From UHGV virus genome UHGV-0091736: DNA of 64,000 nucleotides. One strand, written 5' to 3'. Shown here one piece after another: positions 1 through 7,348 of this stretch. The DNA comes from a virus. The position numbers and the translations under genes are program-made. The notes beneath the pieces are model-generated. The model ran no database searches. It worked only from the letters and a program-made list of their open reading frames with translations, and was not told the DNA's origin. Position 1 is the stretch's first letter; each line of letters begins with the position of its first letter.

Positions 1-527
1 GCTTCGAGGGTTTCCCTGTTAACCCCCTACTCCCGCAGGATAGTCTCTACACTTTCCACTTTCGAATCCATCTACAAGCGATTCCAAAGCTCACACCAAA
101 CCTTTCTGCAAGAGCAACACCAGTGCATTCATTGTTAAGCCAGAACTCTTTAGCAGCATCCTGTCTTTCTCTATTTCTGCCAGTGTTTGATTCAATAGCA
201 TGTGCACTACCTTCTAAGATTTCTAGATGGTCAGTATTACAACAAGCTCTATTCTTGCATTTATGGTTAACTTCATAACCGTCAGGAATTTTTCCAAATT
301 CCTCTTCCATGACGTATCTGTGATACATGACCCATTTGCCATTTATCACTTTTCGAAAGTAACCGTCTTTATTTAATTTGTGTGAGATAGGGATGATACA
401 TCCTGTGCTAGTTGTTTCTAGCACTAGATCTTTCTTAGCCATATCACCTCCTAATAGCTTAGCTCGGTATTGCCCTCAACTTAATGGTCGGGTTTCACCG
501 AGTTCACCAACTTTTACATGCACAATG
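1..527 (-). mobile_element. putative group I-type intron in the DNA polymerase gene (partial, runs off window start); carries HNH ORF 47-442
   Basis: Pol ORF loses similarity to T7 gp5 just before motif C (HDE) and ends HCACKSW*; DNA at the break (TGTGCATGTAAAAGTTGGTGAACTCGGTGAAA...GAGCTAAGCTA) closely matches DNA at the primase-helicase break (12440-12548). Confidence 0.5.
47..442 (-). CDS. HNH homing endonuclease (intron-encoded)
   Basis: 131 aa; His-Me finger motif EVNHKCKNRACCNTDHLE; SD AGGAGG upstream; sits inside the polymerase insertion. Confidence 0.7.
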   Translation of the reverse strand: MAKKDLVLETTSTGCIIPISHKLNKDGYFRKVINGKWVMYHRYVMEEEFGKIPDGYEVNHKCKNRACCNTDHLEILEGSAHAIESNTGRNRERQDAAKEFWLNNECTGVALAERFGVSFGIACRWIRKWKV

Positions 528-2225
528 AAGTTTATGCATATCAATTACCTTAGCACAACGAACTCCATCCTTCTCAATCCACTTGTTAAGGAACATCATA
601 GCGTATTTCATAACAACAGCACCAGCACATTGCAGGAGTGTGTTAAGTGCTTTATGAACCATAACTTTACCAGTGGCATCTCGTCTCATTGTAATCTTGC
701 GACCATCAACACCAATCAAGTACCCTTGAGCAGCTTTCTCTGTCATGCGATCAATGAGGATTGCAATACATGGGTTCTCTGCCAAGAAACGTGCTCGCAT
801 CACTGAACCTTCATCAGCCCCGCCACCTACAATTGAACCAAGCTTAGCATCACCAGCACCATAGTTGAATGCATAGATAAATGTCTTAGCATTGTCACGA
901 GTAGGGAGACCAGCAAGTTTCTGGTTGTGGGAGTGGATATCCCCTTCGAGGAGAATATCACGATACATAATAGCAGAAGCTAAACCGCGTTCTGCCAGAG
1001 CTTTCTTAGCTGGATTATTCTCTTCGATTGCTTCAGCAAGCATATCTCTACATTCTTTGATGAGGTAGTGAGCGAGCATACGAAGTTCAAGTCCAGAACC
1101 ATCATACCCTAAGAATACTTCTTTACCAGCGGGTATGTAATATTTGTAAGCACCTACAGGTTTGTCTTTCTTCCCCGGCTTACCTTTCTCGTAAATTACG
1201 TTAGTACCTTTTCGTATATAACAACCATCAGGAACAACGTTAGTAATAACGAAAGGACGAGAGTGATCACTGTCTGAGTTATAGTCAGACTCAAACAAAC
1301 TGCGACACTCGTGACCAAACAAACCACGGGAGGGAATATTAACCACGATACGATGTTTGAATCGAAAAGTCGGCGTAGCGCAGCTGTTAGCTTCTGCCGA
1401 AAGTTTACCATCTTCGCGTTCCTTTGCTATAAGTCCACTGATAAGACCTAGCCTGTGAGCCGCTACAACACGTCTCTTAAGCAAACTTCCAACACTCCCT
1501 AGCTCACCCCCTAACCCTTCTTCAAGAGTCTCCTCGAGGTTTGTAGGAGCTGTAGGCCACTTGTTTGATGTAGCTAGTGCTTTCTTAATCTCATCAAACG
1601 TTACAGGGTTACGGCGATTAGGGTTTAATCCCAAACCAAACACGTAAGCCTTCATGTAATTCTTAGTCTTAAACCTAAAATGCTTTTCTAAGAATTTCTT
1701 GATATCAGCGTCAACCATCTCGGCTGTCTGCTTCTGCTTAGCACTGCCTCTCATCCAAGCAGTGTACCAAGCCTGATATGTTCCATACTTTCGCATGTCT
1801 TTCTTAATTTCGAAAGTATTCCAAGGCTTCTTAGATACGTTAAACTCTGGAGGAAGAAAGCCCTCATCCATAAGAGCTTCTTTAACTCGTGCATCTTTCG
1901 ATGGGTCAAAGTCTACATATTCTACACAGGTGAATGCTCCACCAATGTCTTCTCTCTTCAGCCCAACCCTATCACAATAAGCTTGAGGCCACTTCTGCAA
2001 AGCACCAGACTTCTTAAACGGCTTCATGTAAGTAGAGCCATCTAATCTCATCTTAGGTAAGAGAGGAATCAACTCTCTATCAATATTAACAATAATCTCT
2101 TTAAGGAGGTGAACATACCACCGAGCATTTCTTCGGTTGAAACTCACTCCGTGCTTTGCTTGCTTAGAGATTATATCAGCGACAGTCATCTCTGTCAAAA
2201 ATGGAAGAGCGTCCGGGTTGCTCAC
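504..2225 (-). CDS. DNA polymerase, family A, T7 gp5-like polymerase domain (5' exon; exon probably ends near 525, motif C lies beyond window)
   Basis: 573 aa; motif A YDGSGLELRMLAHYL; motif B RDNAKTFIYAFNYGAGDAKLG; GVDGRKI...HKALNTLLQCAGA matches T7 gp5 C-terminal region; thumb region alignable to T7 thioredoxin-binding segment. Confidence 0.9.
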   Translation of the reverse strand: MSNPDALPFLTEMTVADIISKQAKHGVSFNRRNARWYVHLLKEIIVNIDRELIPLLPKMRLDGSTYMKPFKKSGALQKWPQAYCDRVGLKREDIGGAFTCVEYVDFDPSKDARVKEALMDEGFLPPEFNVSKKPWNTFEIKKDMRKYGTYQAWYTAWMRGSAKQKQTAEMVDADIKKFLEKHFRFKTKNYMKAYVFGLGLNPNRRNPVTFDEIKKALATSNKWPTAPTNLEETLEEGLGGELGSVGSLLKRRVVAAHRLGLISGLIAKEREDGKLSAEANSCATPTFRFKHRIVVNIPSRGLFGHECRSLFESDYNSDSDHSRPFVITNVVPDGCYIRKGTNVIYEKGKPGKKDKPVGAYKYYIPAGKEVFLGYDGSGLELRMLAHYLIKECRDMLAEAIEENNPAKKALAERGLASAIMYRDILLEGDIHSHNQKLAGLPTRDNAKTFIYAFNYGAGDAKLGSIVGGGADEGSVMRARFLAENPCIAILIDRMTEKAAQGYLIGVDGRKITMRRDATGKVMVHKALNTLLQCAGAVVMKYAMMFLNKWIEKDGVRCAKVIDMHKLHCACKSW

Positions 2226-3629: not shown

Positions 3630-5348
3630 TTAAGCTTTCTTTTCCATTGCTTTAACAATCGCCTTACAGAAACCAGAACGAACAATATCATCTGATTCAC
3701 CATCTACAATCTCAGCAAACTCATACAGATCATGTTCATCAATAAAGTTAGTAGCCCAAGTAAGACCACTCTCACGACCACGCATATCATGCTGGTTAGT
3801 ATCACCCATGCAGAACAGCTGAGAGGTTTCTCCCAATCGAGTCATGATTGAGAAGGCTTCATCTTTAGTTGTGTTCTGGAACTCATCCACGATAACAATG
3901 GCATCATTGAAAGAGCGACCACGGAGATATTCCAGAGGTACAAATTCAATGTTACCATTTCCGATTTGGCATTCATAGAACCCCTTACCATATCGCTGAG
4001 TAATAACATCAATGATAGGCATCAGGTATGGTTCAAACTTCTCACGCATCCCCCCCGGAAGTAACCCAAGAGAGTTACCCATGCCGACCGAAGGGCGACT
4101 CAGAATGATCTTCTGAATCTTACCACTCTTCAGTGCATCAATAACTGTGGAAGTGATTACAAAGGTCTTACCACAGTTACCTGTCACGAAAATGTTATCA
4201 TCTCGACGGAGCAACAGAGCACCTGTTGAGGTTGTAAAGCAATATTTAAAACCATCCTCCGTCTTCATCTTTGTGATCACAGCTTTCCCAGATTGTGGGT
4301 TGTTTGGGGTAATACTGATATGTGTCTGTTTAGAGAAATAAACACGATACTCTAGAGATTTACGAGTATATCCACCATACTCCCGACCAACTCTGTCGTA
4401 AGTTATGATAGATGATTTGTAACCACACTGCATTCCTACAAACTGGATATAGTCTGCATCATCTTTATCGGAAGTAAAGAAAGGTGGTAGTCTATTTCCT
4501 TGTAGGGCAAAACCCCCGTCCCAGAATTTAATCTCATCAAAGATGATTTTAGCATCACTCTTGTTACACAAAGGCCAGTCTTTATACCTTTTAGTCGCAC
4601 CTAGAAGAGAGAAAGATATTACATGAAACCCTGTATCATCTGACTTTTCTGAGTAATCTAAATGGAGAGTATCCAATAACTCTTTGAGTCGAGAAATCTT
4701 CCTCTCTTTCTTTAATCTGAAGACGAATCGCGAGGTGGACTCTGTTTCCAAGTGGGCATCAGCCTTGATGGCAACATGAAGACGTAATTCAGGTTCAGAT
4801 AGACCTAAACTTTTCCCTGAAACAAAGTTGGATGTAGTTTTAATTAGACCCTCAAACCCTATCTTCTTCTTGTGGTGCCTTGAAAGAAGATCAGATACCT
4901 TGATTTTGTTCGCTTTGTCTTTATCTCCCTTACGATAATAAACGACATTATGGTCATCACATAACGCCTGAGATATCCCACGGTATGTTTTAAACAAGTT
5001 CAACTCTTTACACTCTTGTTTAATATAAGCTACAGGTTTTTCTAAATGAGACTCTCCTGTGGTTAAGTTTACTGCTGTTATTAAATCACCTTCCACATAG
5101 TCAGAAATCTTTTTCCATCCAAACTCTGAGAGAAACTCGGTATCCTTATCAACACAGCCCGCAGGAGCGTCTGTGAACACAACTTGTTTAGTCTTAATAG
5201 CATTGAGTAGCTCAGACTGAAACTGGTTCTGAGGGACTACAGGCTTTGCTAAAACCACCTCTTCATACTCTCGCTTACCCTTACGAGTAACAAGTGCTTC
5301 CCGACGAAGGTCTTTCCGTGATTCTTTCCTTGATTGACGACGACTCAT
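3630..5348 (-). CDS. phoH: PhoH-like ATPase interrupted by an intein
   Basis: 572 aa; P-loop reconstituted as DAPAG + CGKT across the insert; PhoH motifs LSRPSVGMGNSLGLLPGG, VIVDEFQNTT, MGDTNQHD. Confidence 0.8.
   Translation of the reverse strand: MSRRQSRKESRKDLRREALVTRKGKREYEEVVLAKPVVPQNQFQSELLNAIKTKQVVFTDAPAGCVDKDTEFLSEFGWKKISDYVEGDLITAVNLTTGESHLEKPVAYIKQECKELNLFKTYRGISQALCDDHNVVYYRKGDKDKANKIKVSDLLSRHHKKKIGFEGLIKTTSNFVSGKSLGLSEPELRLHVAIKADAHLETESTSRFVFRLKKERKISRLKELLDTLHLDYSEKSDDTGFHVISFSLLGATKRYKDWPLCNKSDAKIIFDEIKFWDGGFALQGNRLPPFFTSDKDDADYIQFVGMQCGYKSSIITYDRVGREYGGYTRKSLEYRVYFSKQTHISITPNNPQSGKAVITKMKTEDGFKYCFTTSTGALLLRRDDNIFVTGNCGKTFVITSTVIDALKSGKIQKIILSRPSVGMGNSLGLLPGGMREKFEPYLMPIIDVITQRYGKGFYECQIGNGNIEFVPLEYLRGRSFNDAIVIVDEFQNTTKDEAFSIMTRLGETSQLFCMGDTNQHDMRGRESGLTWATNFIDEHDLYEFAEIVDGESDDIVRSGFCKAIVKAMEKKA
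4176..5156 (-). mobile_element. intein (327 aa) inside PhoH Walker A motif
   Basis: Begins C-VDKDTEF (block A like), TGESH (block B TxxH), ends FVTGN followed by +1 Cys of CGKT; in frame, no stops. Confidence 0.6.
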
Positions 5349-5846: not shown

Positions 5847-6061
5847 TTCACAACCTTAAATTTGAATGTTGTTGGGTGGTAATAGTGCAATCTATTGATA
5901 ATGTGCTTATTCTCATGATAGGTAATACAAGCATGGCACATGGAATGAGTTAAACCAGTTACAGAATTAGGTTTAAAGTTGACAATAGGCTTCTCTTTCT
6001 TACAGAAGCTACACACTTTATGTGTCATCAGTTCTCCAAAGTTTTCTTCAGAGCTGCCCAT
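5843..6061 (-). CDS. small zinc-finger protein
   Basis: 72 aa; CSFC...CHAC. Confidence 0.45.
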   Translation of the reverse strand: MGSSEENFGELMTHKVCSFCKKEKPIVNFKPNSVTGLTHSMCHACITYHENKHIINRLHYYHPTTFKFKVVK

Positions 6062-6684
6062 GAGATTGGGTAGAGCTTAGCCATCTCTTCATCCAGAGAT
6101 TGGGCAAACACTCGAACTTCATATTGAGCGTGAGAGGAGAGTCGCTGACGACACAACTCAAACCAGCCATACAAAGAACCGGTCCACACCCACTCAGTGA
6201 TCATTCCCTGAGGAAGAACAAATCGAGCTTGCTCTGGTGCAATAAATTCAATCAACTTGTCATATGCTGCTAGAGAAGCTTCATATGCATCATTAATCAG
6301 CATTAATGCTTCAGCTCGCTCTCCGTCAATGAGTTGAATCCCTGAACCTGCATGGAGGTCCGAAGGTCTCGCAAAAATCTCTTTAGGGATGAAGACTTCA
6401 ACTGCTCCATCTTTATACCGCCGGGACATTTCGTTCCACGAGAATCCAACCTGATGCTTGCCCAACTGTCTCGCAATTGCGATAGGTGCTTTGCATCGGA
6501 AACTGACTTGCGGGTGTCGGAATGGGGTAACATGCTTCTCTCTTGCGAGGAAGTTGATGAGACGTTCATCACGTTCATTTAAATCACCTTCACGGGTTAC
6601 GCCAAAGGAAACTCGAGCTGCGTTTACTACGCTACGATCACTTCCCATAGCTTCGATTAATGTTGCTTGTAGTTGTTCATTCAT
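6028..6684 (-). CDS. thyX: flavin-dependent thymidylate synthase ThyX
   Basis: 218 aa; KHQVGFSWNEMSRRY fits the ThyX RHRxxSxxxxSxRY signature region. Confidence 0.65.
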   Translation of the reverse strand: MNEQLQATLIEAMGSDRSVVNAARVSFGVTREGDLNERDERLINFLAREKHVTPFRHPQVSFRCKAPIAIARQLGKHQVGFSWNEMSRRYKDGAVEVFIPKEIFARPSDLHAGSGIQLIDGERAEALMLINDAYEASLAAYDKLIEFIAPEQARFVLPQGMITEWVWTGSLYGWFELCRQRLSSHAQYEVRVFAQSLDEEMAKLYPISWAALKKTLEN

Positions 6685-6699
6685 CCGTGAATTTCCTTA

Positions 6700-6909
6700 T
6701 TAATATTCTTTTACATAATAAATCACTAAGGTTCCCATCTCTGACAACGTTGATTTATGTAAGCTTATTTTACTATAAATCTTTGGAGCCATCTTAAGAG
6801 ATTTCTTAAAACGGCGAGCATCTTTACGAGTAGCAAAGTGCTCTGTGACAGGTATAGACTGGTCTTGGTGGAGATAATATACCACCGTCCAATATTTTTT
6901 CATAATCAA
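6700..6909 (-). CDS. hypothetical protein
   Basis: 69 aa ORF overlapping neighbours by 4 nt. Confidence 0.45.
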   Translation of the reverse strand: MIMKKYWTVVYYLHQDQSIPVTEHFATRKDARRFKKSLKMAPKIYSKISLHKSTLSEMGTLVIYYVKEY

Positions 6910-7184
6910 ACACCTAGGGCAGTAGTTAAGAATGCTTTCAGGTTTGCTTCGGTCTGCATACCAGAAATGCTGTAGTGTGCACCACTATTACGGTCAGGCA
7001 CAATGAAAGCAGGGATACTTCGTACACCATACTTAACAGCTTGCTCACGACCATCACCTTCAAGGATGTTAATCTCTTCCACTTCTACATCAAACTCCTT
7101 AACAACCTTCTCAAAGGTAGGAGCCATTGCTTTACATGGAGCACACTGATCACTATAAAACTTAATTACTTTAGACATTAACAA
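6906..7184 (-). CDS. thioredoxin
   Basis: 92 aa; CAPCK active site, KYGVRSIPAFIV, LKAFL; close to E. coli TrxA pattern. Confidence 0.8.
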   Translation of the reverse strand: MLMSKVIKFYSDQCAPCKAMAPTFEKVVKEFDVEVEEINILEGDGREQAVKYGVRSIPAFIVPDRNSGAHYSISGMQTEANLKAFLTTALGV

Positions 7185-7348
7185 TCCTCGTTAACAAATT
7201 CTTTAAGGTGGCGTTTTGTGGTAGGGATTACGATGTAATCTTTATACCCTTGAGCTTTGGCTAAATCCTCAGCTATCTTTTTAGTAGCCCCCAATGCCAT
7301 CACACACTGACAAACAATCACCGTGTGAGCTTTGTATTCGTCCTTCAT
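7178..7348 (-). CDS. small hypothetical protein (below ORF-track cutoff)
   Basis: 56 aa MKDEYKAHTVIVCQC...; weak SD; overlaps thioredoxin start by 7 nt. Confidence 0.3.
   Translation of the reverse strand: MKDEYKAHTVIVCQCVMALGATKKIAEDLAKAQGYKDYIVIPTTKRHLKEFVNEDC

Follow-up and report, generated by a model that had tools for sequence, protein, structure and literature searches.

The window, a stretch of 64,000 nucleotides from the virus genome UHGV-0091736, is evidently a Kuravirus (phiEco32-like) genome. A query of about 3 kb around the thioredoxin gene matched 99 phage records with 93-96% nucleotide identity, nearly all of which are Escherichia/Shigella Kuravirus (phiEco32, NJ01, SU10, EcoN5 and others), and the gene order of the window is that of the middle-gene block of phiEco32. 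On the minus strand, this order starts with primase-helicase, the exonuclease subunit of the polymerase, nucleotidyltransferase, dCTP deaminase, small genes and a Dps-like protein, and goes on with thioredoxin, ThyX, a ligase-like gene, PhoH, small genes and DNA polymerase. The thioredoxin gene lies inside the replication module, with the exonuclease gene on one side and the polymerase gene on the other. An Rfam search at gathering thresholds gave no match anywhere in the window. The features that concern the thioredoxin and the polymerase are as follows:

534..2225, minus strand: first exon of DNA polymerase (564 aa, ending VIDMH in motif C), T7-like family A, without exonuclease domain
1560..1820, minus strand: helical insertion of 87 residues (polymerase residues 136-222), net charge +11, not in T7 gp5
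1821..1955, minus strand: polymerase residues 91-135, homologous to T7 gp5 318-361 by alignments
1896..2060, minus strand: thumb-tip element (polymerase residues 56-110), at the site of the T7 thioredoxin-binding domain
6028..6684, minus strand: ThyX, flavin-dependent thymidylate synthase, second gene downstream of thioredoxin
6906..7178, minus strand: thioredoxin (90 aa), ortholog of phiEco32 gp65, CAPC codons at 7134-7145
7178..7348, minus strand: ORF of 56 aa (PHROG 19504), whose TAA stop shares bases with the thioredoxin ATG (TAATG)
7594..8205, minus strand: Dps/ferritin-like protein, adjoining or near thioredoxin in most relatives examined
9241..9795, minus strand: dCTP deaminase; in Privateer, GAP52 and locus L109 the thioredoxin gene is just 3' of the deaminase gene
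11129..11686, minus strand: separate 3'-5' exonuclease subunit of the polymerase, ortholog of phiEco32 gp74

The earlier note on this DNA had placed a thioredoxin ORF at 6906-7184. This mechanically called ORF on the minus strand begins with TTG at 7184, and its first in-frame ATG is at 7178-7176. A GAGGA ribosome-binding site upstream of this ATG and the TAATG overlap with the stop of the 56-aa ORF make the ATG start and a 90-aa protein (beginning MSKVIKFY) most likely, and the same overlap suggests translational coupling of the two genes. The identification itself was borne out by Pfam (Thioredoxin PF00085, E=1.7e-13, 50.9 bits against a cut-off of 23.5), PHROG (PHROG 22 'thioredoxin domain', E=1.6e-12) and BLASTP against E. 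coli TrxA (30% identity, E=5e-14, with the alignment beginning at TrxA residue 24). The AF2 model (pLDDT 92.9) has the order beta-alpha-beta-alpha-beta-beta-alpha, with strands at residues 3-8, 32-37, 57-61 and 68-72 and helices at 13-26, 43-49 and 77-88, and Foldseek superposed it on E. coli thioredoxin with TM 0.82-0.83 and rmsd 1.6 A. The protein is thus a member of the Thioredoxin family (PF00085), in the phage-type short form with a minimal fold: the first ~20 residues of bacterial thioredoxin are absent.

The active site is C12-A-P-C15-K16 in the context QCAPCK (window 7134-7145), and the CAPC dithiol sits at the N-terminus of the first long helix (13-26). In the cis-Pro loop, R53-S54-I55-P56 is aligned with R73-G74-I75-P76 of TrxA, P56 being invariant in the alignment. 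The site had been called a canonical CxxC (CAPCK), which holds for the CxPC dithiol and the cis-Pro; on the other hand, the protein departs from the classical bacterial signature, as it has QCAPC in place of WCGPC, an invariant Lys6 in place of Asp26 and no N-terminal beta1-alpha1. Trp31 of TrxA is replaced by Gln. Further, TrxA R73, I75, P76 and G92 are kept as R53, I55, P56 and G73, and G74, K90 and A93 are replaced by Ser, Ile and Met, respectively. Across 15 homologs down to 48% identity, C12, P14, C15, the AMAP turn, R53, S54, P56 and G73 are invariant, and the pairwise dN/dS of 0.07-0.37 clearly points to purifying selection.

Phages very often have thioredoxin genes (PHROG 22), and the gene described here is already known: its phiEco32 version has carried this annotation since 2008, and over 100 sequenced relatives have it as well. 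To our knowledge, the only phage thioredoxins that have been functionally tested are T4 NrdC and, recently, that of Syn5. The phiEco32 gp65 and other Kuravirus orthologs share 96-99% amino-acid identity with the protein of the window, have equal length and occupy the same site between the Dps-like gene and thyX; gp65 is annotated as 'thiol-disulfide isomerase and thioredoxin' (YP_001671810). Unlike phiEco32, the window has an additional 69-aa ORF between thioredoxin and thyX, as well as homing-endonuclease, intron and intein-like insertions in genes near the thioredoxin. In SU10, the thioredoxin was detected by mass spectrometry with 52.8% coverage, and thioredoxin, Dps-like protein and polymerase were among the few genes common to the five C3 podophages then known (PMC4281155). 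In the literature on Kuravirus and Gordonclarkvirinae, we found no experiment on a Kuravirus thioredoxin and no data on trxA dependence.

The polymerase ORF spans 504..2225 on the minus strand. Its description as T7-like in the earlier note was confirmed by phmmer (E=1e-29 to T7 gp5) and by Foldseek (E=4e-16, model pLDDT 90), in which the top 27 matches were all T7 gp5, the closest solved relative. Motif B reads RDNAKTFIYAFNYGAG, with the T7-type Tyr. As in phiEco32, the polymerase is split from the 3'-5' exonuclease gene. Moreover, the polymerase gene is broken after VIDMH (codon ending at 534), where the intact phiEco32 protein reads VIDMHDEGQ.

The thioredoxin-binding domain of T7 gp5, which we take to be 76 residues (262-338) at the tip of the thumb between helices H and H1, has a shortened counterpart in this polymerase. 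In the model, a long helix (31-55) is followed by an ordered element (pLDDT 92-94) of a strand (59-66), a helix (78-87) and a strand (98-104), and then by a helix (111-120) and a strand (127-132). At the T7 thumb-tip position there is an insertion, though a shorter one: from the end of helix H to F98 there are 43 residues here against 64 in T7. A profile of the polymerase family covering residues 30-135 matches T7 gp5 320-361 at 23.4 bits, whereas none of 2000 shuffled gp5 sequences scored above 7.0 bits. This significant match corresponds to the last ~19 residues of the T7 binding domain and the next helix. A weak single-sequence alignment by phmmer pairs polymerase 64-134 with T7 296-362, and an independent tblastn search matched polymerase 70-134 to a T7-like coliphage polymerase (E=5e-4). 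T7 residues ~266-295, which include a basic loop, had no counterpart in the polymerase alignments. Thus, of the earlier proposal that a segment of the polymerase is alignable to the T7 thioredoxin-binding region, the part for T7 320-361 stands and the part for ~266-295 does not. Taken together, these alignments establish homology for the final quarter of the T7 domain and for the helix after it, and make it plausible back to the KPFKK/FKKPK loop.

Polymerase T99, V101 and E102 correspond to T7 T327, V329 and E330 inside the significant profile match (320-361), and R91/E92 correspond to R318/E319 in the weaker single-sequence alignment alone; E102 is replaced by Trp or Asn in most relatives. 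In a molecular-dynamics study of the contacts between T7 gp5 and thioredoxin, E319-K90 and E330-R73 were salt bridges, T327-I75 and V329-R73 were hydrogen bonds, and P325-A93 was also in contact (PMC5984650). By these alignments, the part of the domain that is retained is the part touching thioredoxin in T7. A similar reduction has been described in other split T7-like polymerases, where a 32-residue deletion halves the thioredoxin-binding domain (PMC10201439). The thumb-tip block PxxPxM...KPFxK.G...GGPFTxVxY..FD..K is among the best-conserved blocks of the polymerase family. Directly after the thumb-tip element, and also at the thumb tip, is the 87-residue insertion (136-222) of five helices (pLDDT 92-98), which is conserved across the phiEco32/LUZ24 polymerase family and is a candidate for a built-in DNA-binding or partner-binding element. 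In comparison with the complex of E. coli TrxA and T7 gp5 (PDB 1T7P), the thioredoxin fold is alike (TM 0.82) and the polymerase keeps the 319-330 contact strand. On the other hand, the thioredoxin here is phage-encoded, lacks the N-terminal ~20 residues and carries QCAPC, D26K, G74S and K90I, and the thumb-tip element has roughly half as many residues as the T7 domain and is followed by the basic helical insertion, with the exonuclease being a separate protein.

Two finer ideas about this interface were rejected. A mixed disulfide between thioredoxin and polymerase Cys100, which lies beside the T327 equivalent, does not fit the family, in which Cys100 is not conserved and is mostly Ala. Similarly, an 'RE' motif containing the E319 equivalent does not mark the lineages with thioredoxin, because locus L003 has thioredoxin and lacks the motif, acidic residues are common at this position everywhere and the independent clades number 2-3.

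To compare the distribution of the two genes, polymerase residues 1-148 and the thioredoxin were each used in tblastn. The former gave 251 phage records: 96 Escherichia, 105 Pseudomonas (LUZ24-like Bruynoghevirus), 11 Aeromonas, 8 Proteus, 7 Salmonella, 6 Cronobacter, 5 Vibrio and others. The latter gave 130 records, with Escherichia (93), Proteus (8), Salmonella (7) and Cronobacter (6) but no Pseudomonas, so that none of the ~105 Bruynoghevirus records with the conserved thumb-tip element was among them. LUZ24 has the same order of the replication module and an equally conserved thumb-tip element, and no thioredoxin was found either in its annotation or by a six-frame HMM/phmmer scan of its genome; nor was one found by a six-frame scan of a 21-kb stretch of PaP4. 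Ribonucleotide reductase, ThyX, Dcd and Dps are also absent from the annotation of LUZ24. Judging by these searches for thioredoxin, the element is conserved independently of a phage thioredoxin. The LUZ24-like phages could use host thioredoxin instead.

Nearly all relatives with larger genomes have a thioredoxin-fold gene, in most cases right behind the dCTP deaminase gene; in Salmonella phage 7-11 and locus L110, a single gene separates the two. GAP52, L003 and L109 have the order Dcd-Trx-x-Dps-NrdD, and the thioredoxin gene is near the gp68-like and Dps-like genes in Kuravirus, 7-11, Privateer, GAP52, L003 and L109. Aeromonas phage 4_4572, whose polymerase family and replication module are those of the window, shows the order nrdB-nrdA-methyltransferase-thioredoxin, and there the gp68-like/Dps pair stays in place while the thioredoxin is elsewhere. 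In the IMG/VR locus L010, whose polymerase is 39% identical, an ORF for a CINC glutaredoxin/thioredoxin-like protein is directly upstream of nrdB-nrdA. A phage ribonucleotide reductase is present in Privateer (T4-like NrdAB), GAP52, 4_4572, L003, L010 and L109. By contrast, the linkage of nrd genes with thioredoxin is absent in the window, and the annotation of phiEco32 has no ribonucleotide reductase, peroxiredoxin, Msr or PAPS reductase. Likewise, no such reductase or client gene was seen in the 40-90 kb examined of 7-11 or within 10 kb in L110, both of which keep the thioredoxin; that of L110 has no Dps nearby. A general gene link between T7-like PolA and thioredoxin was rejected, since a thioredoxin gene was within 10 kb in 3 of the 80 diverse IMG/VR T7-like PolA loci. 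A pattern-based search for distant thioredoxin loci gave few new contexts. In its distribution, the thioredoxin goes with the module for nucleotide metabolism and not with the polymerase, which LUZ24 has without an annotated RNR, ThyX or Dcd.

Some small genes in these regions may be mentioned. The gp68 ortholog of the window (8150-8479, minus strand; 109 aa, PHROG 10984, no Pfam match) adjoins the Dps-like gene in all relatives examined, including where the thioredoxin gene is located elsewhere. The thioredoxin-fold proteins of other loci include a 70-aa CGPC protein in L110 (7523-7735), after dUTPase/Dcd, and a 76-aa CVNC protein in L106 (28041-28271), after nrdB-nrdA; the CINC glutaredoxin-like protein of L010 (10360-10569), before nrdB-nrdA, is 70 aa.

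The best reading of these observations, which we hold tentatively and at somewhat short of an even chance, is that the gene encodes a redox-active phage thioredoxin supporting replication-linked metabolism. A short thioredoxin with a CxPC dithiol would be made alongside the middle genes for replication and nucleotide metabolism. Its job would be catalytic, taking electrons from host thioredoxin reductase or the glutathione system and reducing disulfides in enzymes that feed DNA replication, among which class I ribonucleotide reductase is the best candidate target. Since Kuravirus has no phage-encoded reductase, the target here would be host NrdAB. We infer the catalytic activity, the electron donor and the target from the intact fold and catalytic residues, the invariant CxPC and cis-Pro and the purifying selection, from the relatives 4_4572 and L010, which place a thioredoxin-like gene with nrdB-nrdA, and from the precedents of T4 NrdC and Syn5.

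In T4, the phage thioredoxin NrdC serves ribonucleotide reductase specifically and has a CVYC site and a glutaredoxin-like fold. Like the protein studied here, it is a small phage thioredoxin-fold reductant tied to nucleotide metabolism (in relatives of the phage studied here, by the gene beside nrdB-nrdA). It differs in having CVYC instead of CAPC and shows no significant sequence match, as phmmer with an approximate T4 NrdC sequence gave no match in the window, and Kuravirus does not have a phage reductase. The thioredoxin of cyanophage Syn5 is a closer precedent in architecture: it also lacks the N-terminal ~20 residues, is redox-active via CGPC and raises phage DNA replication, its deletion lowers genome replication, and most phage thioredoxins have the same truncated architecture (bioRxiv 10.1101/2025.10.05.680603). 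AlphaFold3 docked host thioredoxins, not the phage one, to the Syn5 polymerase, and the authors favoured activation of ribonucleotide reductase over processivity (bioRxiv 10.1101/2025.10.05.680603). The two cases share an N-terminally short phage thioredoxin, a replication cluster and a T7-like polymerase, and the same two hypotheses are weighed. On the other hand, Syn5 has a ribonucleotide reductase of its own as well as a CGPC site, and the activity, fitness effect and AlphaFold3 docking of its thioredoxin were all examined.

Several points count against the redox role. No reductase, peroxiredoxin, Msr or PAPS reductase is annotated in Kuravirus, and thus no phage-encoded client is visible. 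These phages carry a dNMP kinase and an exonuclease, suggesting T7-style salvage with little need of reductase activity. Phage 7-11 and L110 keep the thioredoxin without a visible reductase, and the host already has abundant TrxA. Moreover, the changes of Asp26 to Lys and Trp31 to Gln suggest that the catalytic properties may differ from those of TrxA. A dual role, redox and processivity, like that of host TrxA in T7-infected cells, is possible by analogy.

The foremost alternative is that the phage thioredoxin binds the shortened thumb-tip element as TrxA binds T7 gp5 and tethers the polymerase to DNA independently of host TrxA, which we consider rather unlikely. This idea is already in print, since the Privateer paper of 2021 proposed that the phage thioredoxin couples to the T7-like polymerase for processivity (PMC7881722), and the earlier note had also suggested that the phage supplies its own processivity subunit. 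Its premises hold. T7 gp5 is the closest solved relative of the polymerase, the stretch homologous to T7 320-361 is significant and includes the equivalents of T327, V329 and E330 (E92 for E319 comes from the weaker alignment), and the thioredoxin keeps R53, I55, P56 and G73 in place of TrxA R73, I75, P76 and G92, of which R53, P56 and G73 are invariant in the family. In addition, thioredoxin and polymerase are core genes of all C3-type podophages (PMC4281155; PMC7881722), the thioredoxin persists in lineages without a visible phage reductase and its gene belongs to the replication module, where it is placed between those for exonuclease and polymerase. In other respects the replisome resembles that of T7, a phage in which processivity is the sole essential role of thioredoxin.

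Nevertheless, many observations argue against such coupling. The LUZ24-like polymerases conserve the thumb-tip element with its GGPFTxVxY just as well, and neither the six-frame scans of LUZ24 and the 21-kb PaP4 stretch nor the tblastn matches in Pseudomonas records showed a thioredoxin. The basic-loop part (T7 ~266-295) is missing so that about half of the domain is present. The element and the adjacent +11 insertion are predicted to be folded (pLDDT >90) without a partner, in contrast to the T7 domain with its disorder-to-order behaviour, and the folded basic insertion could give DNA contacts without an accessory protein. No covariation at the contact positions was visible across 10 thioredoxin-polymerase pairs, and TrxA G74 and K90 are replaced by Ser and Ile. 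The invariant cysteines would be unnecessary for a T7-type role. Finally, the gene links to nrdB-nrdA in 4_4572 and L010 and the choice of host thioredoxins in the Syn5 docking point in the other direction. Owing to the LUZ24 decoupling, the half domain, the nrd linkage and Syn5, the processivity subunit is thus not the favoured conclusion from its premises. The more specific statement that Kuravirus encodes its thioredoxin as a dedicated processivity subunit, docking on the half-size binding element of a split polymerase, is unlikely, and more doubtful than the general one. If true, it would be the first phage to bring its own thioredoxin clamp instead of using that of the host, and the wider phiEco32/LUZ24 polymerase family would be thioredoxin-dependent. 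The evidence amounts neither to proof nor to exclusion of polymerase coupling and leans toward the ordinary redox role. Kuravirus is a good test case, since its hosts include E. coli K-12 derivatives, its replisome is T7-like and it does not have its own ribonucleotide reductase.

Another alternative, which seems quite improbable, is that the thioredoxin and the neighbouring Dps/ferritin-like protein guard phage DNA during replication, for example with thioredoxin feeding thiol peroxidases of the host. Such protection would limit peroxide damage, including damage by peroxide that the oxygen-reactive flavin of ThyX might produce. It is consistent with the conserved redox site, with the conserved neighbourhood of thioredoxin, gp68-like and Dps-like genes in the six kinds of phages and loci listed above and with the fact that both thioredoxin and Dps are C3 core genes, whose products were abundant in SU10 proteomics with 52.8% and 35.8% coverage, respectively (PMC4281155). 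On the other hand, the gp68-like/Dps pair of 4_4572 is apart from the thioredoxin, which sits with nrdBA, the thioredoxin of L110 has no Dps nearby, no peroxiredoxin is encoded by the phage and the link of ThyX to peroxide is conjecture. Lastly, Kuravirus and L003 have thyX within one or two genes of the thioredoxin, but the service of thioredoxin as direct electron donor or partner of ThyX, a redox role raised in the earlier note, is very improbable, because ThyX is reduced by NAD(P)H via FAD with no thioredoxin requirement known to us, leaving such a role without biochemical basis, and the adjacency is lost in 7-11 (four genes between) and 4_4572 (more than 15 kb apart).

Apart from the thioredoxin, several genes of the module carry putative mobile insertions. 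The PhoH gene (3630-5348, minus strand) encodes 572 aa, compared with 247 aa for phiEco32 gp60, and an exact in-frame insertion of 325 aa splits its Walker A loop (APAG/C...TGN/CGKTF, with the slashes marking the insertion ends). The flanks are identical to gp60 in pairwise alignment except for the last few C-terminal residues. The insertion has Cys as its first residue, Asn as its last and Cys directly after it, the signature pattern of inteins, though Pfam at E<0.01 showed neither a Hint nor a LAGLIDADG domain. The gene for the primase-helicase is in two parts (11984-12604, minus strand): the first ends SLMR, the second begins WCQCII, and the junction matches the intact phiEco32 gp75 exactly. 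The gap aligns with the Rfam group I intron model from end to end (40.6 bits, E=8e-9, short of the gathering score of 50) and contains an HNH_3 ORF (12113-12448). The insertion in the polymerase gene (window 1-533, minus strand) also has an HNH_3 ORF (47-442); it had no Rfam match, as the 3' exon is beyond the edge of the window. Its 5' end is homologous to the primase-helicase intron, so that similar read-through peptides result (CACKSW and CACKTY, each followed by a stop). A free-standing ORF for an HNH_3 homing endonuclease (8748-9272, minus strand) lies between the dCTP deaminase and gp69-like genes and shares ~30 bases with the 3' end of the former.
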